64,000 nucleotides of DNA from a virus. Taxonomy: Duplodnaviria; Caudoviricetes. The position numbers and the translations under genes are program-made. Below are positions 28,034 to 63,549 of the stretch, piece after piece. Position 1 is the stretch's first letter; every line of letters begins with the position of its first letter. The notes below the pieces were generated by a model. The model did not search any database. It worked only from the letters and a program-made list of their open reading frames with translations, and was not told the origin of the DNA. The stretch covers positions 64,001 to 128,000 of IMG/VR virus record IMGVR_UViG_3300033120_000868; one strand, written 5' to 3'.

Positions 28034-28309
28034 ATGACAGTAGAAAAACAAATAGACGAATTAACTAAAGAAACCTTTAGATTTTGGATAAATGGTAATA
28101 TAATTGTATTGGATGCTTATTACCTTTTTTCGCGCGAAAATAAAAGAAAAAGAAATTATAATTTTGTAAAAAGATATGAAAGACTATCAGATAGAAACTC
28201 TTTCACACCTTTACAAGAAGTACCTCTTACAGAAGAAATAAAAACAGAAGTTTTACAAGAGTATTTTAAAACTTTAAAAGTGATGACTTGGGAAGAATAT
28301 AAAAAATAA
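28034..28309 (+). CDS. Hypothetical protein
   Basis: First ORF after a promoter, A-rich start context. Confidence 0.6.
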   Translation: MTVEKQIDELTKETFRFWINGNIIVLDAYYLFSRENKRKRNYNFVKRYERLSDRNSFTPLQEVPLTEEIKTEVLQEYFKTLKVMTWEEYKK

Positions 28310-28313
28310 AATT

Positions 28314-28877
28314 ATGGAAATACAAAAAGCATATAAGTTAGTAGTAGACAACTTATTATTAGATGAGCCTTATCACTATGAAGCCCCAATTGTTTATGCA
28401 AAAACAGCAGGGGAAGCTAAATCTAAAGGTATCAAATATTTTTACGATTACAGAGTAGAAGATATGTATGACTACGGAAGATATAATGAAAGAGAGATAA
28501 CTTTCACAGATATAAAGGCTAAGAGGGATAAGAACAGTGATAAATTCTTATATAAAGACCAATGGGAAACAAGAGAAAGAATCTCTCAACTTGAATGGGA
28601 AGATAAAAGAGATGAAGAAGCAAAACAAATTTGGTTAGATAATCCTGATGGAATTGCTGTTGTATGGGCAGGATGTTATAACAGTTATTGGGGTGCAAAT
28701 CATGCAGGATATTATTCAAATATAATTAATGCTGGAAAATACTCAACAAAAGAAGCTTATGATATTGTTAGAGGTTCAGATTACTCTCGCCAAGAAAAAG
28801 TAGTTTTACTTAATAAAGAAGAGTATAATAATAAAATAATGGAAAAAGCGCATCAACTTTTAAATAGTATGGTATAA
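28314..28877 (+). CDS. Hypothetical protein
   Basis: 187 aa, tightly packed in operon. Confidence 0.65.
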   Translation: MEIQKAYKLVVDNLLLDEPYHYEAPIVYAKTAGEAKSKGIKYFYDYRVEDMYDYGRYNEREITFTDIKAKRDKNSDKFLYKDQWETRERISQLEWEDKRDEEAKQIWLDNPDGIAVVWAGCYNSYWGANHAGYYSNIINAGKYSTKEAYDIVRGSDYSRQEKVVLLNKEEYNNKIMEKAHQLLNSMV

Positions 28878-29101
28878 TGAAAAAAGAAGACATCAGAAAA
28901 GCTTTTGAAGAAGTGTTTAACAACTCTAAAACACAAACAGAAAGAGAGTTTAAAGGTGTAAGAGGTTGTATAACTTATAGATATAAAGACATTATGGATT
29001 TTAGTCATTGTGGAAATGAAGAGTGTCCAAGTTGTAGTTTAGTTACGAAAGCTTTTAGAGAAGAAGTAGAACGACAAATATTTAAACCTTATGAAAAATA
29101 A
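28877..29101 (+). CDS. Hypothetical small Cys-containing protein
   Basis: TAATG coupling; HCGNEECPSC. Confidence 0.55.
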   Translation: MKKEDIRKAFEEVFNNSKTQTEREFKGVRGCITYRYKDIMDFSHCGNEECPSCSLVTKAFREEVERQIFKPYEK

Positions 29102-29187
29102 ACCGCAAGATAAAAACAGAACTCCTTACTACAAATGGGATAAGAAAAGAGGATTCACAATAGCAGGTTATATAACAGAAGGCAAAG

Positions 29188-29574
29188 ATGGAAAAACCAA
29201 CAGTTAGAGTAGGAATAGTTGGTTCACGCTCAATTACATCTTCAGAATATGTTTTTTCTGTTCTTGATTTTTATTTGTCGCGACTTTTAGAAGAAAATGA
29301 AGTTGTTATAGTGTCAGGAGACCAAAAGAAAGGTGTTGATGGATATGCTAAAACTTACGCAGAAAAACGTGGTTTAAAATATATAGGGTTTCCCCCAAGA
29401 TACGATTTATATCACGTAAAAAGAGCACCTCTTGAAAGAAATACAGAAATAGTAAATGAAAGTGATTACCTAATCGCGATACAAGAAAATAATTCACGAG
29501 GAACTCAAGATTCTATAGATAAAGCTAAAAAGAAAGGAATACCAATTAAAATTATTCAGTATGAGAACAGGTAA
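29188..29574 (+). CDS. SLOG-superfamily (DprA/DUF2493-like) nucleotide-binding protein
   Basis: VGIVGSR, IVSG..GVD..A, RNTEIV..SD.LIA, SRGT..I..AKK.G motifs. Confidence 0.75.
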   Translation: MEKPTVRVGIVGSRSITSSEYVFSVLDFYLSRLLEENEVVIVSGDQKKGVDGYAKTYAEKRGLKYIGFPPRYDLYHVKRAPLERNTEIVNESDYLIAIQENNSRGTQDSIDKAKKKGIPIKIIQYENR

Positions 29575-29821
29575 AACACACGTACAAATATCAATGTTAG
29601 CTAAATCTTTAAATGAAGATAAATTAGTTTTTGTAGCGGGAATGAAAGACCCAAAAGACTATACAGAAAGATTCTTCAGAGATTTTGGAATAGCAGTGAT
29701 AACAGAACCACACTACATAACAAAAGATACGGAATTAGTTTTAGAAGATGTTCCTCCTTATAGAGCGTGGGAAACAAAATATGAACCTCAATTAACAGGA
29801 TATGAATTTAAGAAGATATGA
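29561..29821 (+). CDS. Hypothetical protein
   Basis: Overlapping operon ORF. Confidence 0.55.
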   Translation: MRTGKTHVQISMLAKSLNEDKLVFVAGMKDPKDYTERFFRDFGIAVITEPHYITKDTELVLEDVPPYRAWETKYEPQLTGYEFKKI

Positions 29822-30285
29822 AAAGTAAAACAGCACAAAGAATATTAGAAGAAACGCCTGAAGAAACCAAAGATAGGGTAAGAACTTTAACGAATAGAGA
29901 ACTTGAACTTTTACAGATAGGGTTCAGATATAATGAACATCAGTTGGAATATACACTTTCAAAGTATGATGTTTTATACAGAGTAGAAATTTGGAAGCTT
30001 TCAGACTATGATGACCATAAATGGAGTATTCTTATGGAAGATATCTGTTATGACCTACAAATGGTTAAAAAGCAGTACTATGATGATTTAAAACGCCATT
30101 CGGCTTATACTTTCGCGCAAAAAGAAATAAAACAGCAAATTTTAGACTTAAAAAACAAATACAAATCTCACCTACAAGAAGAAACAAACTGTAAGATAGG
30201 AAAGAATACAAACTTTGTAAAAGAAACAGAACTAAAAGTTAAAATAAGTACTTTAATCGAGTTAGAAAATAAATTAGGATTATAA
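29818..30285 (+). CDS. Hypothetical protein
   Basis: ATGA coupling; ends at the terminator. Confidence 0.6.
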   Translation: MKSKTAQRILEETPEETKDRVRTLTNRELELLQIGFRYNEHQLEYTLSKYDVLYRVEIWKLSDYDDHKWSILMEDICYDLQMVKKQYYDDLKRHSAYTFAQKEIKQQILDLKNKYKSHLQEETNCKIGKNTNFVKETELKVKISTLIELENKLGL

Positions 30286-30292
30286 AAACAAG

Positions 30293-30324
30293 AAAGCCCA
30301 AGGATAATTCTCCAAGGGCTTTTT
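30293..30324. terminator. Bidirectional terminator between convergent arms
   Basis: AAAGCCC…GGGCTTTTT inverted repeat between convergent stop codons. Confidence 0.7.
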
Positions 30325-30588
30325 CTATTTCAACTCTTTTACATTAATATTACCTAAACTAAATATATCCTTTAAGTGAGAATACTCTAAGAATTGCGGG
30401 AAAGAAAATAATAAATCATCTCCACGTTTCATAACTTCATTATCAAAAAATCTTAACCTAACGTTATATCCATCTGTTTCAATATACATTAACGTATCGT
30501 TATTCTTAATAGTTATTAATTTCTGCAAGAAACTCATTTTGTTAAACCTTTCCGATAGAGTTCTGTATTGTTCAACTGTGTAAGTCAT
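30325..30588 (-). CDS. Hypothetical protein
   Basis: Packed minus-strand ORF. Confidence 0.55.
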   Translation of the reverse strand: MTYTVEQYRTLSERFNKMSFLQKLITIKNNDTLMYIETDGYNVRLRFFDNEVMKRGDDLLFSFPQFLEYSHLKDIFSLGNINVKELK

Positions 30589-30772
30589 CTCTTAAATTTA
30601 TTAGTAAATCATATCGTTCTAATTTAATCATTTCTCTTTCTAAATCTTCTTTATATTGTATTTTCGAGGAAAAATTACCAAAACAGTCAATATATTTCCA
30701 ATAGTTAAACTCATCCAAAGACATCTCTTCAAGAACTTTATCTTTTATTTGTAGGTATTGAATTTCAAGCAT
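30572..30772 (-). CDS. Hypothetical protein
   Basis: Packed ORF; C-terminus weakly UVR-like (ERYDLL..LRD). Confidence 0.5.
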   Translation of the reverse strand: MLEIQYLQIKDKVLEEMSLDEFNYWKYIDCFGNFSSKIQYKEDLEREMIKLERYDLLINLRDDLHS

Positions 30773-30775
30773 AAT

Positions 30776-31099
30776 TTAATAAGCTGTTGTAGCCACCATA
30801 TCTGTATATTTAGCTGTTTTTAAATAATCCGCAAAAGATTCAATAATTAAATAACCACTACAAAAATCATCTTCTGTTAAATTGCCATAGTACTCATCCC
30901 AATCAGGTTCTGATACATCTAAATCTAAAATATAACTATTTTCTAACTCCTTCTTAGTTAAGGCTTTTACAAGAGTATCTTCAAAAGAATTAATACCTGT
31001 TTCAGAAGAGTAAAAGTCTCTTGCTTTTTTAATGTTAGGAGCACAAACCCAATCAGTGTCTCCTCCTTTTACATTATGTTCAAATTCATAAATTTTCAT
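30776..31099 (-). CDS. Hypothetical acidic protein
   Basis: Packed ORF. Confidence 0.6.
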   Translation of the reverse strand: MKIYEFEHNVKGGDTDWVCAPNIKKARDFYSSETGINSFEDTLVKALTKKELENSYILDLDVSEPDWDEYYGNLTEDDFCSGYLIIESFADYLKTAKYTDMVATTAY

Positions 31100-31439
31100 A
31101 ATCTTTCATATATTTTTTAATTTTCACTAATTCACTCATCCTATAATCATATTGAGAGCTCAAATCAATCTCCATATTTAAGTCCTCTTCCATTTTTTCT
31201 TTGCTTAAATTATTTTCGCGCAAAAAAGATAAAACAGAAAGACAAAATTTAGAAGACTCTTTACTCCAATATCTATTACGCTTTCTTTCATTAGCTTTTT
31301 CCAACCATCCTGAGTCCTTTATAGCCACTCTTTTAATCCAATCAACATTAGACTCATCTGACCTTCTTTTATACCATCCAGGAGGCTTTAATTCAGCTAA
31401 GAAATCATTCCAACTTATGTTATCCTTCAGTTCTATCAT
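31086..31439 (-). CDS. Hypothetical protein, possible degenerate HTH C-terminus
   Basis: LRENNLSKEKMEEDL resembles the start of an XRE-HTH. Confidence 0.5.
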   Translation of the reverse strand: MIELKDNISWNDFLAELKPPGWYKRRSDESNVDWIKRVAIKDSGWLEKANERKRNRYWSKESSKFCLSVLSFLRENNLSKEKMEEDLNMEIDLSSQYDYRMSELVKIKKYMKDYENL

Positions 31440-31641
31440 CTCTTAACCTTTTACCTTTATTTTTATTATAATCTGTATTAATAAATATTAAATCTTTAAC
31501 ATCAGTCCAAAAATCTTTTTTAGAAGCTCTCGTTTTCAATCTTGCTTTATCTCCTTTTACTTCTATCAATACAAACCTCATTGCTGGATGTGATTGCCAA
31601 GTAGTGTGGTAGTTACAACCAATTATTAGTTCATTTTCCAT
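31420..31641 (-). CDS. Hypothetical protein
   Basis: Packed ORF. Confidence 0.55.
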   Translation of the reverse strand: MENELIIGCNYHTTWQSHPAMRFVLIEVKGDKARLKTRASKKDFWTDVKDLIFINTDYNKNKGKRLRDDRTEG

Positions 31642-31644
31642 ATA

Positions 31645-31836: not shown

Positions 31837-31839
31837 AGT

Positions 31840-32965: not shown

Positions 32966-33238
32966 TTAATCAGTTCTATCTGTCCAAAATTCAATCTTAT
33001 CATTTAATTTGTTTATAAGCATCACTTTAGCTGTATTATAATCTTCAGTTACTCCTGATTTGAAAATGTCTTCTAAAGTTTTTCTATAAATTCTGATAGG
33101 GTCTTCATTTTTATTTATAAAGATAAAGTAATTTTCGTTTTTTGGATGTACACACAAGTAGCTCATCCATTGAATATTAAGATTTTCAATATAATAAATC
33201 TTAACTCCTTGTTTTAATAAATTTTCAATTTTTTCCAT
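32966..33238 (-). CDS. Hypothetical protein
   Basis: First ORF after the promoter at 33292. Confidence 0.6.
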   Translation of the reverse strand: MEKIENLLKQGVKIYYIENLNIQWMSYLCVHPKNENYFIFINKNEDPIRIYRKTLEDIFKSGVTEDYNTAKVMLINKLNDKIEFWTDRTD

Positions 33239-33291
33239 AATTTTAATTTTCGCGTAAAAAGTTAAAAGAAACAGATTTTCTATTTCTCAAG

Positions 33292-36472: not shown

Positions 36473-36715
36473 TTATGTTCCATACCCTTCTAAAAATTTA
36501 TCTAGTAATTCTTCTGTTGTTTTAAATCTAGGTTTTAATGTTTTTTCCCGCCAAATTCCTTCTCTATAATTTAAAGTATTTTCGGCACAAAAAACTGAAA
36601 AAGAAACAGCAAAATCAACAGCTACACTATAAGCATTATCAATATCTTCTTTTGTTCTCTCGTCACTCAACTGACCTAACATTCTAAGTCTAAGTTGTTC
36701 TTTAAGTTTATTCAT
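36473..36715 (-). CDS. Hypothetical protein
   Basis: Packed ORF. Confidence 0.55.
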   Translation of the reverse strand: MNKLKEQLRLRMLGQLSDERTKEDIDNAYSVAVDFAVSFSVFCAENTLNYREGIWREKTLKPRFKTTEELLDKFLEGYGT

Positions 36716-36999: not shown

Positions 37000-38238
37000 C
37001 TACTCTGAATTCTTTTTCTCAACATACTCCCACCTATCTTCCCAAAATGTTACCATTAATTCTAAATTTGTACACGGATAAACTTTAGCATTTTTACTTA
37101 TGTTTTCTGTATCCAACATCGGTTGTAAGTTGCTGTTATGAGAAATTAAGTACATGTCTTCTTCATTTTTAGCCCATGAATAAGGTATTATATGGTCTAA
37201 ATGCCAAGCTTTATTACAATCTTGTTTTTTACACGAACCTTGGTTTTCCCAAGACATACCTTTTATAAATTGTTTCTCTATATAATACATTGCGTTTTCA
37301 AACGTAGTACCTAATAATTTCTCCGTTTTACCTCCTTTTCTCCAACTACTATATCTATAAGCATCATTTATTCTACTTCTTAAATTTGTTTCAAGTCTAA
37401 ATAAGGGGTCATTTAAATACTTCTCTTTTCTTAACATTTTTCTCCTATGTAACCTTTCCTCTCTTGTTAGAGGAGGTATGTTTTTAGGAGGGTTGCGTCT
37501 TTTAGCTTCTTCACAAGCACATGATTTACACCAATATGATAATTTATCCTTACTTCTCTTAACTTTACCAAAAAAACTAGTTTCTTTAACTTTTTTGCAA
37601 CGAGTACAATATTTAAAACCATCTTCAACAATAGGTCTTTCTTCTAAATCAGGGACATCTTTATTTTGAGATGTATAATAATCTTCTCGTAAACATTTTT
37701 TACATCTACTTAAAGGTTTATCCTTGTTCTTTCCATAGTCATTGAAAGGTTTTTCTATCTTACACTTAGAGCATATCTTATGCCCATCTAAAACCACAAT
37801 AATTTCTTCAAAAACTCTATCTTTTACACATTTTTTACACTTAGGATTCTTCCCGTCTTTTTTACAACTCATATTTGTAAAGTCTGAAAAGTCTTTTTCT
37901 ATTTTACAAACTTTGCAAACTTTACTGCCTGTCAGTATTTCTTTACCTACAGGTTCTGTTTTATTTTTTATACACTCTTTACACCTTGATTTATATCCTG
38001 ATTTACTTCTTGTAGATATTGAAAAATCTGCTTCTGTTTTCATTAGTCCGCAACATTTACAAAACTTAGGAGTGTTGTATCTGATACTTTCTATATGCCT
38101 TGAGCTAATCCTTTCTTTACAACAAACTTTACATTTGGTCTCCCTGCCGTTTTTTGCTGTACTCTTTTTTGTGAATTCATTTAATTCTTTTTCAATACCG
38201 CAGGCACTACATATCCTTGTAATTTCTTCATTTTCCAT
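37000..38238 (-). CDS. HNH homing endonuclease with five tandem CxxC…CxxC zinc-finger repeats
   Basis: Repeats of K.C..C..EK...F…C..C; C-terminal WHLDHIIP..HNSNLQPM..EN.SK. Confidence 0.75.
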   Translation of the reverse strand: MENEEITRICSACGIEKELNEFTKKSTAKNGRETKCKVCCKERISSRHIESIRYNTPKFCKCCGLMKTEADFSISTRSKSGYKSRCKECIKNKTEPVGKEILTGSKVCKVCKIEKDFSDFTNMSCKKDGKNPKCKKCVKDRVFEEIIVVLDGHKICSKCKIEKPFNDYGKNKDKPLSRCKKCLREDYYTSQNKDVPDLEERPIVEDGFKYCTRCKKVKETSFFGKVKRSKDKLSYWCKSCACEEAKRRNPPKNIPPLTREERLHRRKMLRKEKYLNDPLFRLETNLRSRINDAYRYSSWRKGGKTEKLLGTTFENAMYYIEKQFIKGMSWENQGSCKKQDCNKAWHLDHIIPYSWAKNEEDMYLISHNSNLQPMLDTENISKNAKVYPCTNLELMVTFWEDRWEYVEKKNSE

Positions 38239-40364: not shown

Positions 40365-40504
40365 AAATATTCACAAGTTTCTTTTTCTTTATTATAAGGG
40401 GTTTCAGTAAAATAAGATTGTCTAAATTCATTAGCTTTTGCTGTAAATCTATAACAAGTTTCTTTTAGTGGACAACCTCTTCCTTCACATTTTGCTCCGT
40501 CCAT
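40349..40504 (-). CDS. Small Cys-rich protein (51 aa, not in ORF track)
   Basis: Hand-translated MDGAKCEGRGCPLKETCYRF…CEYLWIRQ; TAATG-coupled; fills the gap. Confidence 0.55.
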   Translation of the reverse strand: MDGAKCEGRGCPLKETCYRFTAKANEFRQSYFTETPYNKEKETCEYLWIRQ

Positions 40505-40911
40505 TACTTAATAATTAAATATCCACTTAATAATAAACTACCATATAATAACAACTTATTTCCAAAGTTTTTACGTTTCTGTTTCTTAACTTCTTCGGCG
40601 TAAATCTCTATCTGTTGTTCTTTTGATTGAACTAAATCTTTGTACAGTAAGAGTTGATTTTCTTGAGTAGAAATAATAGTATCTTGAACTACAGATTTTT
40701 GTTCTAAATGAAATACAATTTTTCTCTGTATTTCCAATTCATTTTTAAAATAATCACAATCAACTTTAAAATAATTTAATTTCTTAATTAAAGATAAGTC
40801 AATTACAAATTCATTGTCACTTATTTGTTTTGGATAAGGCGTTAGACCATTCTGAGAAAAACTTTGCGTGCTCATCAGCAGTAAAGTTATTAAGGCTATC
40901 AATTTTTTCAT
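40504..40911 (-). CDS. Spanin-like protein (signal peptide, coiled coil, C-terminal hydrophobic segment)
   Basis: MKKLIALITLLLMSTQSFSQ signal; coiled coil; LLLYGSLLLSGYLII; overlaps the upstream gene. Confidence 0.5.
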   Translation of the reverse strand: MKKLIALITLLLMSTQSFSQNGLTPYPKQISDNEFVIDLSLIKKLNYFKVDCDYFKNELEIQRKIVFHLEQKSVVQDTIISTQENQLLLYKDLVQSKEQQIEIYAEEVKKQKRKNFGNKLLLYGSLLLSGYLIIK

Positions 40912-41176
40912 CTCTTTTTACTTTATTATTATTTGATTCTACTTTTAAACCATCTATTTTTGTTTGTAAACTATCTCTTTGTTTTAAGAGAACTGTTTTA
41001 AATTTTTCCAGGTTTTTAATTTCTTCTTCTGTTTTTTTATCTTTTTCGCGAAAAGTTTCAAGCTCATTTTTTATTTGACTTTTCTCACAACTCTGAATAA
41101 AAATGATTGTAATTAGTACAGCTACTAAAATAAACAACCATCTATTTTTTAAAAATTCTAATATTTTATTTTGCAT
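40817..41176 (-). CDS. Spanin-like membrane/lipoprotein with coiled coil
   Basis: N-terminal TM ending IFIQSC, followed by a coiled coil. Confidence 0.5.
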   Translation of the reverse strand: MQNKILEFLKNRWLFILVAVLITIIFIQSCEKSQIKNELETFREKDKKTEEEIKNLEKFKTVLLKQRDSLQTKIDGLKVESNNNKVKRDEKIDSLNNFTADEHAKFFSEWSNALSKTNK

Positions 41177-41519
41177 CTCTAAAGTAAATTTCTTCTGTGT
41201 GTTTTTTATCTCTTTTTAAATCTTCAATTTTAGCATCTATATAATCAATAGTTAGTTTTCCAATATCTTCTGATGTTAAATCACCTGAGTAAAAATCTCC
41301 TCTAAAAACACCTTGTACATTGAAAGTTTTATCTGTGTGGATATACAAATGTTCTAAATGCTCGCCTTCACAAAAAATTAAATAAGCTTCATTTCCTGGC
41401 ATTTTACCAACAAATCTTAGTTTTCTATAATGCACACCTTGAAACTTATAAACTGTATCTCCATAAGATAAGTTTTGTAATTGTTCTGCTGTTAGTTTTT
41501 TATTTTGTAAGTTCATCAT
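41166..41519 (-). CDS. Hypothetical protein
   Basis: Packed ORF. Confidence 0.55.
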   Translation of the reverse strand: MMNLQNKKLTAEQLQNLSYGDTVYKFQGVHYRKLRFVGKMPGNEAYLIFCEGEHLEHLYIHTDKTFNVQGVFRGDFYSGDLTSEDIGKLTIDYIDAKIEDLKRDKKHTEEIYFRDAK

Positions 41520-41742
41520 CTAAAATTTTAATTAATAATTTTAAAGCTTCAATATCTGCTGTTCTTGTTTTGTCGATTACTTCTAAAATAGTTTCTATTT
41601 CATATTTTTTCGCGCCAAAAAAAGATAAATCAGAATTAAAACTAATTAAATCTTCTACTTCTTCTACTAAGTCAATAACTAACTGACTATAATTCTCCAT
41701 CTCATAAAATGTGGAGTAACTTAATTCTTCTAATGTTTTCAT
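41500..41742 (-). CDS. Hypothetical acidic protein
   Basis: Packed ORF. Confidence 0.5.
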   Translation of the reverse strand: MKTLEELSYSTFYEMENYSQLVIDLVEEVEDLISFNSDLSFFGAKKYEIETILEVIDKTRTADIEALKLLIKILDDELTK

Positions 41743-41752: not shown

Positions 41753-42352
41753 TTAACAGGAATAGCTGATTTTTAAGTATTTTCCATCTTTTAAAGGATA
41801 TAATGAGTATCCTGAATAATCATCTCCCATCATACCAACTGTTTGCCAATTAAAAACTCCCTTACCTCTATAATCTGTGTAAGTGTTACCTTCTCCTTTT
41901 ATTTTTGCGCAAATAGATTTAGGATAACCCTCTTTACTCTTACCTGTCAGTTCTATTTCAACAATATCTTCAATCCCCCAAGAATCATAATCTTCTTCCA
42001 TTTCTCTCCAAAACTTTTTGACTTTAATCAAGCCTTTTAGTTTTTCTTTCCAAGAGTCTCTTTCTTTGAGCCGTCTATTCTCTTCTTCGGCAACTTCTGC
42101 CCACATTTTTTTATAGAACTCTTGCTCTTCTCTTTCTTTATTTATTAACTCGTCTTCAACAGCTAATTTAGCTTCTTCTAAAGTTGGCGGAAAAAGAATA
42201 AAAGAAACAGAATTACCATCTTCCCAATCACCCATCATCCTATATTGTTCAATAACAGACTTACCTTCAAAATCTAATTTATACCTAACTGTCCAATTAG
42301 CATCATAATAATACCAAAAACCTTTTTCTAATTCCCAATAATTTTCTTCCAT
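41753..42352 (-). CDS. Hypothetical protein
   Basis: 199 aa ORF, GDDYSG motif. Confidence 0.6.
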   Translation of the reverse strand: MEENYWELEKGFWYYYDANWTVRYKLDFEGKSVIEQYRMMGDWEDGNSVSFILFPPTLEEAKLAVEDELINKEREEQEFYKKMWAEVAEEENRRLKERDSWKEKLKGLIKVKKFWREMEEDYDSWGIEDIVEIELTGKSKEGYPKSICAKIKGEGNTYTDYRGKGVFNWQTVGMMGDDYSGYSLYPLKDGKYLKISYSC

Positions 42353-42564: not shown

Positions 42565-42798
42565 TTAATCTTCTATTTGTTCAATAACTTTTTCTAATAT
42601 AACCTCTAAATCGTCGGGAGAAAAAAATTCAAAAATATCAATCTCTGAATCTTCTACATAAACCTCATCTACATTAAACGATGAAGGGCTTCCTGGATAC
42701 CCTGACATATCATTATAATACATAACAGCTTCTTCACCTGCTTCATATTCTCCTACTACTCTAATAGGAATACCTTTAAATACAACACTAATTTCCAT
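42565..42798 (-). CDS. Small very acidic protein
   Basis: 77 aa, D/E-rich; similar to 58712-58915. Confidence 0.6.
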   Translation of the reverse strand: MEISVVFKGIPIRVVGEYEAGEEAVMYYNDMSGYPGSPSSFNVDEVYVEDSEIDIFEFFSPDDLEVILEKVIEQIED

Positions 42799-43859: not shown

Positions 43860-44119
43860 AATTTGTCTTTTATTTTATAATATTTATCTGAATTTAATTG
43901 TGACATATTTAATTTCAGTTCTTTTATCTTTTTTACTCCGCCGTTAAAAGAAATAGGACAAGAGAATAAAAACCGCAAAAAAGATAAAAACAGAAGAAAA
44001 TATTTCTCTAAAAAAGAACACTCTCCATGTCTAATCCTAAAATTATCATCCCAACTAATATATCCTAATTTAATCTTTTGATTAGGAGTTAGTTTAAAGT
44101 AGTTAAGGAGTGACAACAT
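43856..44119 (-). CDS. Hypothetical protein
   Basis: ATGA-coupled ORF. Confidence 0.45.
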   Translation of the reverse strand: MLSLLNYFKLTPNQKIKLGYISWDDNFRIRHGECSFLEKYFLLFLSFLRFLFSCPISFNGGVKKIKELKLNMSQLNSDKYYKIKDKL

Positions 44120-44966: not shown

Positions 44967-45128
44967 AAATTTCGCCGTTTAAAAAATTAGAAAGCAAAGA
45001 TACGGAATAAAAAACAAAAAGACAAGAAAAACTTAATCTTCTTGTCTAATTTATAATGATTATAAATAATATAGTTATAAATACAACATTAATTTTAAAT
45101 ATCCAAATTAGTTAAATTATTTGTTATT

Positions 45129-47595: not shown

Positions 47596-47774
47596 TATAT
47601 GCTGTTTTTTATTTCTTTTCCGCAAAATTTTAAATTAACCCCCACTTTTTTAATAAACTGAAGTGGAGGTAATCAATTATTATGTCTTCATCTTCTTCTC
47701 CATAAAGAACATATAATTTAGCCTCTATAACATCTCTAAAAGATATTCCTTGTGGTCTTTTGTAAAATATACCT

Positions 47775-47996
47775 TTATTCATTAATATATTCAACATAAT
47801 TAGGGTTAAAAATTTTAACGTAGTTGCCATTTTCAAAATGCACAGTGTAGTTAGGTAGAGCTTCAAAGAATAACTCTTCTATTTCTATTACTCCTCCAAC
47901 ACCTATTTCGTATTTATCATAGTTTTCTCCTGCTCCGTCTCTATCTTGTACAGAACCTACTTGTCTCCAATTAAAATGTATTTGTTTTATTTTCAT
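47775..47996 (-). CDS. Hypothetical protein
   Basis: Packed ORF. Confidence 0.55.
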   Translation of the reverse strand: MKIKQIHFNWRQVGSVQDRDGAGENYDKYEIGVGGVIEIEELFFEALPNYTVHFENGNYVKIFNPNYVEYINE

Positions 47997-48002
47997 CTGT
48001 TT

Positions 48003-48185
48003 TTATTTCTTTTCCGCCGAAAATTTATCCTCAAATTCAGACTCAAAACGGCAAAATTTTAAATTACTATTCAACTCTTTGTAAATCACTGCGTTCTGCC
48101 ACTCTCCAAAATGGTCTTGTAACAAACACATATCTACTATTACGTAATCACCTTCTTTTTTCTTATAATGTTTATATATTGTCAT
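48003..48185 (-). CDS. DUF1653-like small protein
   Basis: YKHYK..Y..VIYK..R..EF..KF. Confidence 0.6.
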   Translation of the reverse strand: MTIYKHYKKKEGDYVIVDMCLLQDHFGEWQNAVIYKELNSNLKFCRFESEFEDKFSAEKK

Positions 48186-48409
48186 TATCTTGCGTATTTT
48201 AAATCATATAAAAACTCAGCGTATTCTTCACTCACTATATGATACTCATTTGCTACCGTGTGTAATTCATCAAAAGTATTTCCATACCTTAGTATGAATC
48301 CATACTTACTGTCTTCTACGTAACCTACGTAAATTTCACTACCACTTGCCATATAATCCCCTACTTTTATAGGAATTAATTCACTATCTACATATCCTGT
48401 ATAAATCAT
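48185..48409 (-). CDS. YopX-like small protein
   Basis: YTGYVD..IKVGD pattern. Confidence 0.45.
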   Translation of the reverse strand: MIYTGYVDSELIPIKVGDYMASGSEIYVGYVEDSKYGFILRYGNTFDELHTVANEYHIVSEEYAEFLYDLKYAR

Positions 48410-48578
48410 TTTTATTCTTTTTTCGGCGAAATTGGAGGAGCTATGATTGTATGAGCTTTACTTTTATCTAAGTAGTTTAAAGTTTCCACCCACTCATCTA
48501 ATTCTTCTGATTGTAGTTTTGATACACAGAATAGTTCTCTTAGTCTTTCTACATCTCCTTCTGTTATAATGTATGTTT

Positions 48579-50885: not shown

Positions 50886-51105
50886 TTACAATACTCCATT
50901 TAATTAATTCTTGACCCAACCCATCAAGGTCAGTATAACTTACAGTCTTAACTTCAAAACTAACTTCTCTACCTTCCACTAATTCTACATTAGATTCTGT
51001 TAGAGATAGTGGGTAGTATTCTAATTCTATTTCGTCTAATTCTTTTCCCGCCGAAATCGCTCTTACATAAAAAACATTATTCTTTTTTACAATCTTACCT
51101 TTCAT
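50872..51105 (-). CDS. Hypothetical protein
   Basis: Packed ORF. Confidence 0.5.
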   Translation of the reverse strand: MKGKIVKKNNVFYVRAISAGKELDEIELEYYPLSLTESNVELVEGREVSFEVKTVSYTDLDGLGQELIKWSIVNEEK

Positions 51106-52406: not shown

Positions 52407-52460
52407 ATCTATTAGTTTTACTTTGCAAATATATAACTTTTTTCGCGGATAAAAAAATAA

Positions 52461-54307: not shown

Positions 54308-54604
54308 TTAATGTGTTTCAAACTTATCTTTTAATTTATTGTAAATACTTTTAGCTTCTTCAAACCTTACTTTCTCTACCAATTCTCTTGTTTCTGTTTC
54401 TCTTTTTAGGCGATTTTCATATTCTTCATCTGTTTCTTCTTTTTCGGCATAAAATGAAACTGTATTGTATTCAATTTCGCAATATGTCGCTTCTGATTCT
54501 TCAAAAATTTTAAGAATACTTTCAATATTCTCTTTTTTAAATTGTCCTGTTGGTGAAGCTGTATATTCTTTGTATGATAACCAACGTGTTTTTACTTGTT
54601 TCAT
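54308..54604 (-). CDS. Hypothetical protein
   Basis: Start set at MKQVK, just after the dut stop; ETDEEY..RL. Confidence 0.55.
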   Translation of the reverse strand: MKQVKTRWLSYKEYTASPTGQFKKENIESILKIFEESEATYCEIEYNTVSFYAEKEETDEEYENRLKRETETRELVEKVRFEEAKSIYNKLKDKFETH

Positions 54605-54605: not shown

Positions 54606-55103
54606 TTATTTACCTGAACTTCCATAACCACCTTCACCTCTTTCTGTTTCTGATAATTCATTTACTTCTAAAAACTTAATTTCAGGATAAGGTAAAATTA
54701 AAATTTGTCCAATTCTATCTCCTATTTTATATTCTTCACCAATACAATTTTTAACTGTTAAAGTATTAATCAATCCTAAATCGCTTAATATTAATTTTAA
54801 TGTGCCAAAATAAGGAACTCTTACACTCTTTTTATATTTAAACATAACCTCTCCTCTGTAACCACTATCTAAAACACCAACAGAATTACTTAATAATAAA
54901 TCTTTTTTTGCATTACTTGAGCGTGGAAATAATAAGCCTACATAACCTTTAGGAATTTCAAAAGCTAATCCTGTACCATAAACTGTATTACCATCTCCAT
55001 CGTATTCTTTACTTATAGCTACTAAATCCATTCCCGCATCACCTTCTTTTGCATATTTAGGTATTACAGCGTCTTTTGATAATTTTTTAATTTTAATTTC
55101 CAT
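54606..55103 (-). CDS. dut: dUTP diphosphatase
   Basis: AGMDL, PRSS, GVLDSGYRGE, GDRIGQ, RGEGGYGSSG. Confidence 0.95.
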   Translation of the reverse strand: MEIKIKKLSKDAVIPKYAKEGDAGMDLVAISKEYDGDGNTVYGTGLAFEIPKGYVGLLFPRSSNAKKDLLLSNSVGVLDSGYRGEVMFKYKKSVRVPYFGTLKLILSDLGLINTLTVKNCIGEEYKIGDRIGQILILPYPEIKFLEVNELSETERGEGGYGSSGK

Positions 55104-55483
55104 TACAAATATTCTTGTTTAGTTTCTAATACACCTTTTACAATATTAAGTTGAGAATAATGACCTTGATTACCTGCTTTCTCTCTTAAATTATTATATT
55201 CTTTTATAGCTTTTGTTAGTTCTGTTTTTGTTTTCACTTTTTTAGCGGAATAATATAGTTCGTCAATTTCTTTGAAAATTCTGCTTGACCTCTCGCCTTG
55301 ATAAAACATCATCCATGAAACAAAAAACATGATTGTAGATAGGAAACCTACAAGTTTTAAATAGGCTACTAAATCAAATTGAAGGTCTGAATAATAAGAA
55401 AATAACATTCCAATAACAAAGCAATTGATTCCTGTGATAAAACCTAAAGTTAAAGGTTTTTGTTTATTTATCCATTTTATCAT
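55103..55483 (-). CDS. Two-TM membrane protein
   Basis: Two hydrophobic helices followed by a charged tail. Confidence 0.55.
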   Translation of the reverse strand: MIKWINKQKPLTLGFITGINCFVIGMLFSYYSDLQFDLVAYLKLVGFLSTIMFFVSWMMFYQGERSSRIFKEIDELYYSAKKVKTKTELTKAIKEYNNLREKAGNQGHYSQLNIVKGVLETKQEYL

Positions 55484-55634: not shown

Positions 55635-55865
55635 TTATCCATTATTCTTACACTTAATCATCTCAGCTAATTCTATAATAAGCTTTTCTGCATCTTTACT
55701 CAATTTATCAGAAACATAAGCTAATTGTGTTCCAAACTCGTGGTTAGTATAAGTCTTAAATCCTTTACCTAAACCATTGAATAAATTTGCTTGAGTGTGG
55801 TCATCTGAATGAGCAATGTCAAAACCTATGTTTTCTGCTATTAATTCAATACTTGATTTAATCAT
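55635..55865 (-). CDS. Hypothetical protein
   Basis: Packed ORF. Confidence 0.55.
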   Translation of the reverse strand: MIKSSIELIAENIGFDIAHSDDHTQANLFNGLGKGFKTYTNHEFGTQLAYVSDKLSKDAEKLIIELAEMIKCKNNG

Positions 55866-56332
55866 ACCTGCTGTTTTTTAGTTCGCATTAAGTCAACAAA
55901 ATCATAAATATTGGAAGTAAAATCAGCAGCTAAACTTTCAAATTTTACAAGAGCTTGTTCAGAATAGTCTGTTTCTTGGATACTCTTAACTACTTTATCT
56001 TTTATCAACTGTTGATTCTCTTTTACCGTTTGTTCTATCAGTTTTGCGCCAAAAGATGTAGGAGCATTTGTAGAATAATGATAATTGAAAACATGAAAAC
56101 TCAAATCTTTACTTTTAATAAGTTCTGCAACTTTATTAATTAACTCCTCTTCATAATTAGGTACAATTTTGTCTACTTCATCTCTTACAATCGCATAAGC
56201 TAAATTACTTAATAACCTTTGAGTATTTTCTTCACTACCTGAAAAGAATTTTCTAATTTGATTTCTTAATTCATCTTGAACAATTTCTTTTATTTCTTGT
56301 TGGTCTAAGTAATCTTCTATTTTAATTTCCAT
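55862..56332 (-). CDS. Hypothetical protein
   Basis: Follows the -7 box TATATTTG at 56352-56359. Confidence 0.6.
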   Translation of the reverse strand: MEIKIEDYLDQQEIKEIVQDELRNQIRKFFSGSEENTQRLLSNLAYAIVRDEVDKIVPNYEEELINKVAELIKSKDLSFHVFNYHYSTNAPTSFGAKLIEQTVKENQQLIKDKVVKSIQETDYSEQALVKFESLAADFTSNIYDFVDLMRTKKQQV

Positions 56333-56738
56333 AATTATTTATTTTGTTTTGCAAATATAGTGAATGTTTTTGAATTGTGCAAGTTTATTCTTCTAAACTT
56401 TCATTTATACCTTCAATTTTGTCTCTTAACTCTTGACCATAGCTATAATCAATATTTGAAATCTGATATTTAGAAGTTGTTGAGTATTTGCCTATTTCTC
56501 TATGTAAAAACTCAATATAAGCTTCCTGAATTTCCACTAAATTTTGTAATTTCTTTTTCATCTTAAAATATACTTTCTTCTTGTATTAAACGCTTAACTA
56601 AAGCTTTATCATTGTAAGATAATAAACGAAACAGTTCTCTTATGTTTATTACATCTTGACTATATTTTTCTTCTGTTTTTCTCTCTTTTTCGCCGAAACT
56701 GTCATCTAAATAAAATTTTTGTACACTATCGCTCATGA

Positions 56739-59159: not shown

Positions 59160-59930
59160 TTATTGTTTTTTATTTTTGTCAAACCACTTCATAGTAATGT
59201 AATCGTTTTCATCTGTAAAAGTATCCACTAAAGAATTTTTCATAGAATATAATAAATTTAGTTGTTCTAAAACTTCTTCCTCACTATACATTCTCTCAGC
59301 TTGCCACTTAGCACCAAATTTAACAGCTTCTATTACAGCTTTATTAATTTGTTCATTATATTCTGAATAATTTTTAGCAACTTCTTCAAGTTCTAATTCT
59401 TCTTTAAATATCTCTCCTAAAGCTTCTTCCACTTGTTTAGCTATTTCAGGATTACCATTCTTTTCTAACCATTGGTCTATGATATTTTCTTCTGTTTTTG
59501 AACTCTGTTCTCTATTTTCTTTTGGCGAAAAATTTAAAGAATATGAATATGTATAGTCAACGCATATATTATAATCTGTTTCGTTAAGTTCCTTTATAAC
59601 CTCCACATAATCAGGAGTATTTTCGGCGTAAAAAGATAAGAAAGAACTGTTAACTTGTTGAACACCATCTTCTATAAGAGTGGGGTCATTAGTGAGAACT
59701 ACTTTTTTACGTCCTAGTAAACTACAATCATCTTTCCATTTCCAAACTTTATAACCATCTGTTATGTAATCGTCAAATTTAATCTCCTCATTATTAGTAA
59801 TATAGATAAATTTATTTACAACCCAACCTCCCATAGATAAAACATTCTTACTATGACCATAAACATTAGCGTGTGTATTATAGTATAATTCACTTTCTTG
59901 GTCTGTTTCTTTTAAAAATATGTTCTTCAT
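59160..59930 (-). CDS. Hypothetical phage protein
   Basis: IYITNNEEIK, LIEDGVQ, GAKWQAERMYSEEEV; -7 box TACATTTG at 59958-59965. Confidence 0.6.
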   Translation of the reverse strand: MKNIFLKETDQESELYYNTHANVYGHSKNVLSMGGWVVNKFIYITNNEEIKFDDYITDGYKVWKWKDDCSLLGRKKVVLTNDPTLIEDGVQQVNSSFLSFYAENTPDYVEVIKELNETDYNICVDYTYSYSLNFSPKENREQSSKTEENIIDQWLEKNGNPEIAKQVEEALGEIFKEELELEEVAKNYSEYNEQINKAVIEAVKFGAKWQAERMYSEEEVLEQLNLLYSMKNSLVDTFTDENDYITMKWFDKNKKQ

Positions 59931-60040
59931 AAACTACTCTTTTAATGATTTCTTTTGCAAATGTACGGAAAAATATTTTACTGTGCAAGAAAAAACTATT
60001 TTATTTTTTATTTCGCGCGAAAAAAGTTAGAAACGGAAAT

Positions 60041-60068: not shown

Positions 60069-60075
60069 CTGTTTA

Positions 60076-60246
60076 TCAATCTTCTTTATAAGGACAATGC
60101 CTACAATTGTTATTACAACAACTTCCTCTTCTTTTATGATAAGATTCTGTAAAAATCATATTACCTTGCTCCCAATAGAAATCTGTAGGTAACAGTTTAT
60201 TTTTACTTTGTTCTTTTACATATTGACTAAAAATCCAATCTTTCAT
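60076..60246 (-). CDS. DUF5522-like small Cys-rich protein
   Basis: FTESYH..RGSCC.N.CRHCPY; start at MKDW just after the RNR stop. Confidence 0.7.
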   Translation of the reverse strand: MKDWIFSQYVKEQSKNKLLPTDFYWEQGNMIFTESYHKRRGSCCNNNCRHCPYKED

Positions 60247-60250
60247 ACCT

Positions 60251-62434
60251 TTAAATAAATGTAATTTCACAACCTCCCGAGCTACATGCAACAGCACCTA
60301 AAGTGTCTACAGCTACAAAAGTAGGTTTAAAATCAATCTCTGTAAAATCAATCTTCTTATAATCTCTTGTAATTATAGACCATTTGTGAAACAAATGCAC
60401 ATCTTTTAAACAACTGACCGCTGTATTTAAGTCATTTTTAAAATAACTTTTTGCAAACTTTTTAATTCGTCTAACAACATCTTTCTTTAATAGTAATTTA
60501 TATCTATCCCCTGATAACTCAAAATTTCTATCAACTACAGCTTGACATGTATCCCACAAATCATTATCAAATGCGTGTAAAGAATCTACAATTAATCCTG
60601 AAGCAAATAAACTTCCTGTACCATAATTAGAAACAATTTCTTCAAATGATAAGACTTTTGTAAAAGGACTTTGTTTATAGACTTTATCTCCTAAACTTGG
60701 CATAAAAGATAATCCACAGAAAAATTCTTTATTATCAAAAATATGGTCAAATAGTCCTTCCCAATCTTGTACAGTGATTGTATTAGATACATTATGTGTA
60801 ACTCTATTTGAATAACCTCTGTCTTTATGATTACCTACTAATACCCAATTCTGATATACCGTTTCTACTGCTTTTACAAAATCAATATCTGATAAATCAT
60901 CTTTAAACAAAGACCCCTCATTTTCTTCAATTGGTAAATAAACTGCATAATCATTTCCTGAAGCACTCCAAACAGAGTTTTCTAACAAAACAGAGTTTGT
61001 ATCAGCCAATACTTTTGCAACTTCTGTTTGTTTGTTCATCTGCATAATTCTAAAATATCTTCTTGAGTGTGCAGGGTGTATTCCTGATGATGTTCCTAAA
61101 ATTACAGAGGCGTTTCCGCTTGGCTTAACTGTTGTTGTACGTGCAGCAGGATTAATACCTATAATTTTAGCAACTTCTTCGTTGACTTGATTAACAATTT
61201 CAGCCCCTTTTCTTAAAACTTCAGGGGATAGTAATACTTTAGGATTATCCATAATCCCTGTAATTGAAACTCCAATTAAAGCTTCCTCGTTAATAAGCTC
61301 TTCTGTATCAATACCTAAAAACGGCATATTTGTATAAGATGCTTGTAATGTACCTAAAATTGACGCGTTTCTACAAGCCTCGTAAAATTTAGCAGGTGTA
61401 TTACATAACCCACCATTAATTTCATTTAAGTTACAGAAAGAAATACATGAATTACCTGTTTTTGGGTTTACAGGGATAAAACCAATTTCTGCACAAGGGT
61501 TTGTACAAAAATCAATGTCATCAACTAACACAATACCTGGCTCACCAAACTGTTTAATACTCTCTTTATAATTATCAAACTCCTCTTTTGTTAAATCAGT
61601 TTTTAATAGTTTAATAGAGTTGTTTGCTCTACCTCTTTGTGCATTATCATAAAACCAATTCCCTGTTTTACATTTTAGCATTAAATCGTCGTCTTTGTCA
61701 AACAAACAAATTAAAGCTGAGCGTCTAATTCCTCCACTTAAAACTGCATCTGCAATATGGCAAACAATATCGTGTGCATCTAAAGTAGAAAGTTTTTCTT
61801 GACCACTGTTAACTCTACTATTTACTAAACTCTCAATTAATTCTAAAGACCTTCTTAGAGGTTGGAAGCCAGGAGCTTTGAAACCGCCTGAAATATAAGC
61901 TCCCTCAGGTCTAATTAAAGAGCCATCAAATCTAATTTGTTCACTCCCATTAAAAAATGACATCATTAAAGCATCAACTGCTAAAGCCCATCCTTCTACA
62001 CTGTCCTCAATAGTATAAGTAACTGTTTCTTCTTTTCTTTTTTTTATAGTTGGTAATTTCTCAACAAATCTTTTTTCTACAGAGTACCCCGCACCACATC
62101 CGTTCAATAAAATGTACATAATTTGCTTGAACACTTCAGGTCTGTCAATATAAGTTGAGCTACAATTAAACAGCTTTACATTATGCTTATTAATACTATC
62201 TCCTCTAAATTGTAAGTTTCTTTGGGACGCTAAAATTTGCTTGTTTTTATAAGCTTGAGTAGCAGAATCTAAATATGAAGTAAGCTCAGGTAAATGTTTA
62301 AACTTACCATAATGCATCTCCATAACGCTATCTACAGATTCTTCCCACGTTTCTTTTCTCCCTAAATCTTCTCTGTATTTTGAGTAAGATTCATAAAATT
62401 TTAAATTACTTAATAGTTCTTTTCCTTTATTCAT
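60251..62434 (-). CDS. nrdJ: Class II (adenosylcobalamin-dependent) ribonucleotide reductase, RTPR-type
   Basis: FNCS, GGIRRSA, TNPCAEI, CNL.EIN, TTVKPSG, C-terminal ACSSGGCE; no beta subunit nearby. Confidence 0.85.
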   Translation of the reverse strand: MNKGKELLSNLKFYESYSKYREDLGRKETWEESVDSVMEMHYGKFKHLPELTSYLDSATQAYKNKQILASQRNLQFRGDSINKHNVKLFNCSSTYIDRPEVFKQIMYILLNGCGAGYSVEKRFVEKLPTIKKRKEETVTYTIEDSVEGWALAVDALMMSFFNGSEQIRFDGSLIRPEGAYISGGFKAPGFQPLRRSLELIESLVNSRVNSGQEKLSTLDAHDIVCHIADAVLSGGIRRSALICLFDKDDDLMLKCKTGNWFYDNAQRGRANNSIKLLKTDLTKEEFDNYKESIKQFGEPGIVLVDDIDFCTNPCAEIGFIPVNPKTGNSCISFCNLNEINGGLCNTPAKFYEACRNASILGTLQASYTNMPFLGIDTEELINEEALIGVSITGIMDNPKVLLSPEVLRKGAEIVNQVNEEVAKIIGINPAARTTTVKPSGNASVILGTSSGIHPAHSRRYFRIMQMNKQTEVAKVLADTNSVLLENSVWSASGNDYAVYLPIEENEGSLFKDDLSDIDFVKAVETVYQNWVLVGNHKDRGYSNRVTHNVSNTITVQDWEGLFDHIFDNKEFFCGLSFMPSLGDKVYKQSPFTKVLSFEEIVSNYGTGSLFASGLIVDSLHAFDNDLWDTCQAVVDRNFELSGDRYKLLLKKDVVRRIKKFAKSYFKNDLNTAVSCLKDVHLFHKWSIITRDYKKIDFTEIDFKPTFVAVDTLGAVACSSGGCEITFI

Positions 62435-62485
62435 CGTTTTTAAATTCCTGTTTTTGTTTTCATGTTACTGTTGTTTATTAAGGAC

Positions 62486-62518
62486 AAAAAACCCTGCCAC
62501 TTTAAATTTCGACAGGGT
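62486..62518 (-). terminator. Terminator/attenuator hairpin in the nrdJ leader
   Basis: ACCCTG…CAGGGT followed by a U-tract, between the promoter (62620) and the nrdJ start. Confidence 0.6.
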
Positions 62519-62532
62519 ATAGTTTTATATGT

Positions 62533-62552
62533 AAAGCACTCGTGCCTCGTAT
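62533..62552 (+). repeat. Inverted-repeat copy 1 (AAAGCACTCGTGCCTCGTAT)
   Basis: 19/20 match to the reverse complement of 63550-63569. Confidence 0.8.
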
Positions 62553-62619
62553 GAGCCAAGCCTTCTTAAACAAAGCTACTTTCTCATTAGCTATCTCGGA
62601 CAGCTCTAAATTTCTTTTG

Positions 62620-62651
62620 CAAATATAGTAATAGTTTTTCTAATTACCAAA
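62620..62651 (-). promoter_or_regulatory. Bacteroidetes sigma-A promoter
   Basis: TTTG (62648-62651), 20 nt, TATATTTG (62620-62627). Confidence 0.7.
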
Positions 62652-62700
62652 TTTGTTAACTGAAATGTTTTTCTTTTAGCTAATTTTTTTGCGCGAAAAA

Positions 62701-63009
62701 TTAATCCCAATTTTTATATAATTCCTTAAATTCTTTTAAAATACTCAAAGTCTCTTGTTGAATTTTTAACATCTCACTTACTTCAGGTAAGATAATCTGT
62801 TTTAAAGATGTAAACTTCTCTAATGCTTGAGAAACTGTTGGATAATAAAACCTTTCTTCTGCTGTGTAGTCTACTGTTTCTCCGTTTTTATTAGTTCTTT
62901 TGGCGGGAAAATGCTCTACTAAAACTACACCTTTAAATTGGTCTGACTCTAGGTAATAGTGTTCACTTAAATCTATTCTGTCTTTGTGTTTGAAAATGTT
63001 ATTGTTCAT
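62701..63009 (-). CDS. Hypothetical protein
   Basis: 102 aa ORF. Confidence 0.6.
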   Translation of the reverse strand: MNNNIFKHKDRIDLSEHYYLESDQFKGVVLVEHFPAKRTNKNGETVDYTAEERFYYPTVSQALEKFTSLKQIILPEVSEMLKIQQETLSILKEFKELYKNWD

Positions 63010-63012
63010 ATC

Positions 63013-63228
63013 TTATTTATTTAATATTTTAATTCTTTTCTTAGCCAACTTTTTATCAAAAAATGGCATATCTCCAAGCTCTCCATAAGTATTATCAATT
63101 TTATAATCACCAATAATTTTAGAGGATTTAATAAAACCAAATCTTACAGTTTCTTTTCTAATCCAAAACGTTTTTGGAGCTTCTTTGTCGTATAGAGGGG
63201 TTTCTATTATTGTGTATTTTACTTTCAT
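63013..63228 (-). CDS. Hypothetical protein
   Basis: 71 aa ORF. Confidence 0.55.
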   Translation of the reverse strand: MKVKYTIIETPLYDKEAPKTFWIRKETVRFGFIKSSKIIGDYKIDNTYGELGDMPFFDKKLAKKRIKILNK

Positions 63229-63549
63229 CTTGTTTAGTATAAATCTGAACCTATTTCTGCTAATTCTTTTGTCAATTCTTCATCGTCAAAAGCACACCAT
63301 GTTTCTTCTTTCATTTTTATTATTTTTTTTTAGTTTTTCGCCGTTAAAAATAAAGAAACAGAAGTAATTTACTTTCACTTGCTATTTTAATACCCACAAG
63401 ATTACGAGTAACTTCTGAATCTTTAAATACCCTTGTTATTGCATTGGTCAGGATTGTACCGCACTTATCTTACTATATGTAGCGGACAAGTTCTAATTAC
63501 TACACAAGGAGAGTTCTATGTATTTTACTCACAATTAACATACTCACCA

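Follow-up and report, generated by a model that had tools for sequence, protein, structure and literature searches.

The motif and its genome setting

The window described here comprises 64,000 nucleotides, positions 64001-128000 of the 143,493-bp IMG/VR virus contig IMGVR_UViG_3300033120_000868 (a genome labelled G000), and the element in question is a short dispersed motif, made of a T-run, a core of C and G only and an A-run, that recurs among the early and replication genes. Crude gene calls divide the genome into two arms. The plus-strand late arm (genome 35.0-94.3 kb, 59 kb) carries the structural genes, including those of giant virion proteins of 1795, 1908 and 2079 aa. The minus-strand early/replication arm (genome 94.3-143.5 kb plus 1-34.1 kb, 83 kb) contributes to the window the genes of a prim-pol, an HNH/endonuclease VII protein, a family A DNA polymerase, a DnaB-like helicase, a dUTPase, a thymidylate synthase and a ribonucleotide reductase, along with many small open reading frames (ORFs) without assigned function. 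The last 20 bases of the contig are repeated near position 875, a terminal overlap between genome 1-875 and the contig end; judging from these overlapping ends, the genome is probably complete and circularly permuted.

The host is probably a member of the Flavobacteriia, since the DNA polymerase is 52% identical to that of the Cellulophaga phages phi4:1 and phi17:2 (genus Lightbulbvirus) and these phages show the same two-arm layout. A crAss-like identity was rejected, as the polymerase places the genome near phi4:1. Megablast of 12 kb against the GenBank phages returned no match. The genome contains 30% G+C. Outside the contig ends, CG is strongly depleted, mostly to an observed/expected ratio of 0.4-0.65. 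Of 1200 CG dinucleotides in the early arm, 103 fall within motif cores.

The motif is genuine, and it is restricted to the early arm. The pattern TTT[CG]4-7AAA occurs 36 times there, against 2.7 ± 1.7 times (maximum 8) in 200 dinucleotide-preserving shuffles. When synonymous codons were shuffled within genes and the intergenic DNA was kept as is, 21 copies remained; about 15 coding copies thus exceed the expectation from codon usage. Among runs of 4-8 C/G in the early arm, 72 are flanked as T..A and 18 as A..T, as opposed to 11 and 10 in the late arm, and no motif excess was found in the 59 kb of the latter. The recurrence reported in a preliminary description of the window, made from its letters alone, holds in the early arm against both the dinucleotide- and the codon-preserving null. 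The signal had been taken for genome-wide; it is arm-specific instead, and the two sparser copies cited for the other part of the window (16005 and 19588) lie in the late arm, which has no excess, and are probably due to chance. All 21 of the positions listed at that time carry the sequences given for them. At 43973 and 58570, which had been read as full motifs, the T-tract is missing, and the copy at 36579 is where it was placed, but with an interrupted core. In total, the early and replication genes hold about 60 copies, and 59 sites were analyzed in G000. A fixed pattern with a 4-nt core gives 4 matches in the window versus 1.2 expected, a definition too narrow to be useful.

The motif was also found in four uncultured relatives: G001, with a DNA polymerase 85% identical to that of G000; G002 (64%); G006 (= L041), whose DNA transfer protein is 89% identical; and G007 (= L039). 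L039 and L041 were recovered by scanning IMG/VR for the same pattern, which otherwise returned mostly single chance matches. The highest density was seen in G007, with 12 sites in a 6.4-kb contig, about one per gene and in both orientations. Some of these form facing pairs in one intergenic gap; the genes of this contig are shared with phi4:1, and none is detectably shared with G000. The cultured reference phi4:1 itself has no such motif and no other dispersed word, and the motif is absent from three IMG/VR relatives at 50-53% DNA polymerase identity. It therefore belongs to one sub-lineage.

The sites are listed below in window coordinates. Class A denotes a tail in the sense orientation and class B a tail in the antisense orientation; no strand is assigned to central motifs.

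28125..28140, no strand, central motif only (TTTTTTCGCGCGAAAA), inside the small plus-strand ORF 28034-28309
30111..30135, minus strand, full site TTTCGCGCAAAAAGAAATAAAACAG, in the plus-strand ORF 29818-30285 at the convergent arm boundary
31213..31237, minus strand, class A, in ORF 31086-31439
33247..33274, minus strand, class A, intergenic, in the order host-type -7 box, 17 nt, motif, 12 nt, ATG at 33238; G006 has a site at the same junction
36541..36555, no strand, central motif only, in ORF 36473-36715
36579..36609, minus strand, degenerate class A with interrupted core
40576..40604, plus strand, class B, in ORF 40504-40911
41027..41054, plus strand, class B, CTGTTTTTTTATCTTTTTCGCGAAAA
41605..41637, minus strand, class A variant with tail CTGAT, in ORF 41500-41742
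41902..41913, no strand, central motif only, in ORF 41753-42352
42184..42214, minus strand, class A, in ORF 41753-42352
44970..44986, no strand, central motif after an intrinsic terminator, preceded in the sense direction, at 17 nt, by a host-type -7 box and followed by an ATG
47599..47628, plus strand, class B, upstream of the DNA polymerase gene; two -7 boxes follow in the sense direction
47995..48024, plus strand, class B at a gene junction; the sense strand reads ..AAACAG and then immediately ATG
48409..48432, plus strand, junction site 14 nt before an ATG
51043..51056, no strand, central motif only, inside an ORF
52438..52457, no strand, central motif over the -33 position of a promoter, with an intrinsic terminator on one side and the -7 box of that promoter on the other
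54428..54456, plus strand, site tailed on both sides
55232..55252, plus strand, class B, in ORF 55103-55483
56026..56054, plus strand, class B, in ORF 55862-56332
56671..56698, plus strand, class B
59501..59532, plus strand, class B, in ORF 59160-59930
59619..59646, minus strand, class A variant, in ORF 59160-59930
60009..60040, minus strand, class A, immediately past an intrinsic terminator; a host-type promoter follows after about 50 nt
62682..62700, no strand, central motif only, intergenic
62881..62911, plus strand, class B, in ORF 62701-63009
63334..63365, minus strand, class A, intergenic, 24 nt before an ATG
16005..16021, no strand, look-alike, probably chance, in a late virion gene
19588..19602, no strand, look-alike, probably chance, in a late virion gene

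Anatomy, position and selection

The center of the motif consists of a T-run (mean length 4.7), a C/G-only core of 4-7 nt that nearly always includes CGC or GCG, and an A-run (mean 4.5). At about 45% of the sites, a one-sided pyrimidine tract, the tail CYGTTTyTTwAtC, starts 16-23 nt ahead of the core. With respect to the minus-strand genes, this tail has the sense orientation at 17/59 sites (p = 2e-12) and the antisense orientation at 10/59 (p = 1e-3). The AAACAG-type tail of the preliminary description is thus real, but its restriction to the plus strand is not, since both strands carry it. The core is asymmetric as well and its polarity tracks the tail: after the T-run, GCGG, GGCG and CGCGG greatly outnumber their complements.

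Over the five genomes, 30 oriented sites are sense and 22 (42%) antisense, and 28 of these 52 lie inside ORFs, including 15 of the 22 antisense ones. Their distribution in G000 is regional. Between 104 and 127 kb of the genome (window 40-63 kb, the replication module), nine antisense sites are found for one sense site, versus one antisense and 16 sense in the remainder of the early arm (Fisher p = 2e-5). This switch may arise because the purine-rich reading (..AAAAGAAATAAAAACAG) is easy to encode in K/E-rich genes, and the pyrimidine-rich reading is not. Coding compatibility is the simplest account of the pattern; the packed replication genes also leave little intergenic room. A polarity imposed by primase or the replication fork was rejected as its cause, given a late arm without sites. 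Upstream of the polymerase genes of G001 and G002, as in G000, an antisense-oriented site is present. Furthermore, at 59501-59646, two inverted copies stand about 100 nt apart in one 256-aa ORF, their tails facing outward.

Intergenic sites account for 26 of the 59 in G000, although intergenic DNA makes up only 11% of the sequence. In the five genomes, the core of sense-oriented intergenic sites is situated 12-27 nt before the called gene start in 10 of 17 cases, compared with 19% of random intergenic positions (p = 3.5e-4), and in long intergenic regions the site is close to the downstream gene. Bacteroidota sigma-A promoters (-33 TTTG / -7 TAnnTTTG, i.e., TTTG ... TAnnTTTG) are abundant in both arms and distinct from the motif; the most over-represented 8-mer of the early arm, TATATTTG, is a host-type -7 box. 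Motif copies are found upstream of such promoters, on their -33 position or 10-37 nt downstream of the -7 box, so that the two signals differ. The motif contains no TAnnTTTG box preceded by TTTG at about 19-21 nt. Canonical intrinsic terminators are likewise separate from the motif; three in the window adjoin sites.

Selection acts at the level of the nucleic acid and not on peptides, as judged by sequence comparison. The coding copies occupy all three reading frames, and a peptide motif was rejected on that ground: the recurring peptides (VLSFLREN, LSFFGAKK, FLSFYAEN, etc.) appear because the DNA motif dictates them. The class A site in ORF 31086-31439 is identical over 27/27 nt in the G001 orthologue despite a protein identity of 48%. 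The site in the plus-strand ORF 29818-30285 stands in the same alignment column in G000, G006 and G001; in the G001 version, the core is CCGCCG in place of CGCGC and the peptide SAE in place of FAQ, with the T-run, C/G core, A-run and tail all retained. When the orthologues of the 31213 and 30111 sites are pooled, the codons of identical residues are themselves identical in 19/21 cases inside the site versus 84/132 outside (Fisher p = 0.01). The preliminary description had suggested that selection acts on the DNA, and these data bear it out. The DnaB-like helicase gene has no site in G000, but in G001 and G006 sites with different cores share one alignment column. A site follows the DNA transfer protein gene in both G000 and G006 though the next genes differ.

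Several structured elements were tried and rejected. An RNA hairpin or thermometer does not fit, with 60-nt folds around the sites close to those of shuffled sequences (mean z of -0.4 for 19 sense and -0.2 for 10 antisense sites) and without positive covariation of the T-run and A-run lengths, which show a slight negative correlation (r = -0.22). An intrinsic terminator would require a GC-rich hairpin followed by a U-run, and here the T-run comes before the GC block. The sequences fit neither a host sigma-A promoter nor a sigma-54-like geometry. No match to the window was obtained in a scan with Rfam 15. When bacterial genomes were scanned for the full pattern, the matches listed were scattered single ones in unrelated taxa, which is uninformative on its use by the host. 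No publication dealing with promoter motifs or other regulatory motifs of the phi4:1 group was found in literature searches.

Possible readings of the motif

Partly overprinted on coding sequence, the motif is a genuine cis element of the early arm, specific to one lineage and under strong selection. Among the functions offered in the preliminary description, a regulator site fits best: the sites are found in one arm only, are enriched about fivefold in intergenic DNA and adjoin gene starts and host-type promoters. A readout of DNA bending or shape is conceivable. The tentative preference here, somewhat short of an even chance, is for dispersed operator-like sites serving a putative lineage-specific factor that would control early-arm transcription. 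Each would be an asymmetric site in double-stranded DNA of the form (CYGTTTyTTwAtC)-T4-7-[S4-7 containing CG, preferably GCGG]-A3-7, and the factor reading it would be specific to this sub-lineage of phi4:1-like flavobacterial phages. Its likely use would be to repress or block the host RNA polymerase at promoter-proximal and intercistronic positions in the early/replication arm, for example in an early-to-late switch. We infer all three parts of this function: binding by a protein, an effect on transcription and the negative sign of that effect.

The conserved copies in both orientations, in which core polarity and tail are inverted together, suggest that duplex DNA, and not a single RNA strand, is recognized, and they speak against a conventional promoter class. 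Control of transcription is suggested by the restriction to one arm, the enrichment in intergenic DNA and the location between promoters and start codons. Sense intergenic sites stand between host-type -7 boxes and start codons, or between cistrons, both of which are operator-type positions. Moreover, the asymmetric core with a polarity following the tail fits one-sided recognition, and the distribution over a sub-lineage is the pattern expected of a co-evolving, lineage-specific partner.

Several findings weigh against the operator reading. For a sequence-specific protein, the geometry is loose: the distance from tail to core ranges over 16-23 nt (SD about 2) and the core over 4-7 nt, without compensation between the two (r = -0.16, so that a constant total length is not significant), and about 60% of the sites have no recognizable tail. 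This looseness is the main weakness and keeps alive the promoter-class and polymerase-intrinsic readings considered below. A short, constant distance to start codons is not required of an operator and would fit a promoter or an mRNA leader too. Upstream sites at orthologous genes are shared in no case and unshared in four (few pairs could be compared); sites therefore also turn over. Conservation of position in related phages extends to some coding sites (in G001 and G006), but not to these upstream ones. Finally, PHROGs and Pfam scans of 55 ORFs of the window, seven of them late-arm virion genes, revealed no regulator or candidate binding protein.

Dispersed regulatory sites are already known in phages. 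The stoperators of cluster A mycobacteriophages, bound by L5 gp71 or Bxb1 gp69, are fixed-length 13-bp words in one orientation relative to transcription, found in both arms of temperate phages and recognized by a known monomeric repressor (PMC9283540, PMC6550527). They appear to be the closest described system, by functional analogy and not by membership. Both sets consist of tens of asymmetric, dispersed and lineage-specific sites, many of them in short intergenic gaps and next to promoters; here about 60 sites are in excess, with 26/59 intergenic versus 11%. Stoperators also act on the host RNA polymerase, as is proposed for the present motif. Unlike stoperators, the blocks vary in length (core 4-7 nt, tail to core 16-23 nt), the sites are of both orientations (30 sense, 22 antisense) and in one arm only, and no repressor was recognized among the 55 window ORFs. 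The binding sites of p4 in phage phi29, CTTTTT-N15-AAAATG, are few and located at specific promoters. They share the inverted T-tract and A-tract with the motif, and p4 is a small regulator that reads DNA shape and switches early and late promoters, a role comparable to that of the putative reader here. Their spacer is 15 bp long, against a CG core of 4-7 bp here, and they lack a one-sided tail.

That the sites form a phage-specific promoter class, such as middle promoters like the MotA-dependent ones of T4, is rather unlikely. Host RNA polymerase, redirected by a putative phage factor, would read CYGTT and the T-rich block and open the DNA at the T-run; the GC core of 4-7 nt would serve as discriminator, and transcripts would begin in the A-run. 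The distance of sense intergenic sites from start codons would suit such a promoter, host-type -7 boxes being found at the same distance, as would the way the sites hug the downstream gene in long intergenic regions. In G001 and G006, no signal other than a site separates an intrinsic terminator from the next ATG. Variable-length blocks defined by composition are usual for promoters, and phage promoter classes are commonly limited to one arm and one lineage. Against this, 42% of the oriented sites face against the genes, some of them conserved; the TAnnTTTG box is lacking; several sites begin only 10-17 nt after a host -7 box; and inside ORFs, where a leader would serve no purpose, the A-run is retained. 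Furthermore, the sigma factor domains PF04542 and PF08281 were not found in the genome, with positive controls, and the early arm has no ORF of the size of a T7-like polymerase. Searches with PF00940 were uninformative, as the controls gave no signal, and a divergent factor may be present. A T7-like or crAss-like virion polymerase found no support either: the giant virion proteins (window 10409-27918) have no DFDxD polymerase motif and no sequence relatives in the Protein Data Bank (PDB).

In phage T4, middle promoters combine a MotA box (TGCTT) with a sigma-70 -10 element and are present in dozens of copies. Like the present sites, they occur in early and middle regions, often downstream of early promoters or inside upstream genes, and begin with an upstream word of T, G and C (TGCTT in T4, CYGTT here). 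The motif differs from them by the absence of a host -10/-7 element, by a wider and more variable spacing and by its many antisense copies, and no MotA- or AsiA-like genes were recognized.

It is also conceivable, though doubtful, that the motif is a hairpin-less, composition-coded signal (T-tract, CG clamp, A-tract and polar pyrimidine tail) that acts on the Bacteroidota RNA polymerase directly or via one small phage factor, marks the whole arm as early and switches it off or attenuates it as a block. Copies would then have been written into coding sequence where intergenic space is lacking. If true, phages wholly dependent on the host polymerase would have a global temporal switch of a new kind.

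An element of the mRNA leader or of intercistronic RNA is improbable. It might be a pyrimidine-rich translation enhancer (binding S1, without Shine-Dalgarno pairing), the target of a RegA-like repressor, the target of a RegB-like endoribonuclease shutting off early messages, or a boxA-like antitermination site. Sense sites in 5' untranslated regions directly after -7 boxes, at a fixed short distance before start codons, would agree with such a function, as would an excess limited to early-arm transcripts and the lack of structure, a property of RegA and RegB targets. It is contradicted by the antisense copies with conserved tails, by conserved copies deep in ORFs with no start codon after them, by a core polarity that follows the tail in both orientations and by the empty Rfam scan.

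A hairpin-independent pause, attenuation or termination signal read by the host RNA polymerase itself, perhaps with NusG, has a slim chance. The weak rU:dA hybrid over the T-run would be followed by a GC-rich duplex downstream, and in one direction the tail would lengthen the U-rich stretch. The variable-length, composition-type blocks are compatible with it, and so are the Y-G step read at every T-run/core boundary, the late operons without motif excess and the copy just past the last early-arm gene, which is kept inside the convergent gene in three genomes. The tail moreover resembles the T7 class II pause/termination signal (ATCTGTT and a U-run), in which an (A/T)TCTGTT word is followed by a T-run without a hairpin. 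That signal, however, needs a T7-type polymerase, which was not found here, and has no CG core or A-run; in the motif, the T-run comes 5-9 further bases after the word. About 190 genes share about 35 host-type promoters, and strong stops at most junctions would break their operons; only a weak or conditional effect would be tolerable. This reading also leaves the conserved A-run without a role, and, to our knowledge, no such signal is documented for Bacteroidota RNA polymerase.

It is very unlikely that the motif is a junction repeat promoting the exchange of gene modules, the role proposed for PeSL elements in T4-type phages, or a small selfish repeat of the REP/MITE type. Sites do flank poorly conserved small genes, stand at the edge of a 2.4-kb indel of small genes in G000 and G006, reach about one per gene in G007 and occur as inverted pairs; PeSL elements, too, are repeated regulatory units bordering variable small early genes. 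These elements, however, consist of a sigma-70 early promoter and a stem-loop, neither of which is seen in the motif. Also against the repeat reading are the absence of a hairpin or other stable fold, the lack of positive covariation of the T-run and A-run lengths, and the copies inside conserved genes that are maintained with synonymous-site conservation. In addition, the hairpin-bounded cassette region of G000 lacks the motif, and homology breakpoints near the sites are expected anyway, since the sites flank genes.

A structural, packaging, translocation or self-marking signal, including the packaging or translocation cue and the self-protection mark of the preliminary description, is barely credible: T-tract/GC/A-tract DNA is expected to have an unusual groove geometry and to bend, but the sites have no excess in the 59-kb late arm, which leaves half of the genome without them, no uniform polarity along the genome and no tie to its ends, and they associate with gene starts and promoters.

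There has been hardly any study of gene regulation in the phages of marine Flavobacteriia. A signal of roughly 30 nt in about 60 copies in one arm offers a handle on the timing of the early and replication genes in a genome without a recognizable polymerase or sigma factor of its own for transcription. It is also a clear case of selection at the nucleic-acid level constraining protein sequences, and in annotation the recurring SF(F/L/Y)(A/G/R)(E/K) peptides should not be taken for a protein motif. The partner factor, if found, might serve as an orthogonal regulatory part for Bacteroidota.

Late promoters and neighboring genes

The promoters of the late arm have a -7 box, TAATTTTG or TATATTTG, preceded by an extended conserved block, TTTTTAACTAATTTTG, which may be a late-specific recognition element. 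Early-arm promoters instead read TTTGCAcaAT ... TATATTTGCA.

Window 3352, 15859-15894, 21644 and 28007, plus strand, late-arm promoters
Genome 39872, 42753-42787, 45686 and 59290, plus strand, late-arm promoters

After a motif site, the 21-nt stretch AGTTTTTTCTTGCACAGTAAA is found in two genomes, at about 59960-59990 of the window (minus strand) and at about 4555-4580 of L013; in G000, it forms the -33 region of a host-type promoter. Between 30600 and 33300 of the window, about 2.4 kb of small genes are missing from G006 (L041 1983-2393), and a site is present at the conserved edge in both genomes.

The three giant virion proteins are encoded consecutively at 10409-27918 of the window, and their only domain matches are LPD23 and a weak GNAT domain. 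The 412-aa protein encoded at 37000-38238 (minus strand) combines, according to PHROGs, similarity to an HNH endonuclease, to Lar-like restriction alleviation and to endonuclease VII.

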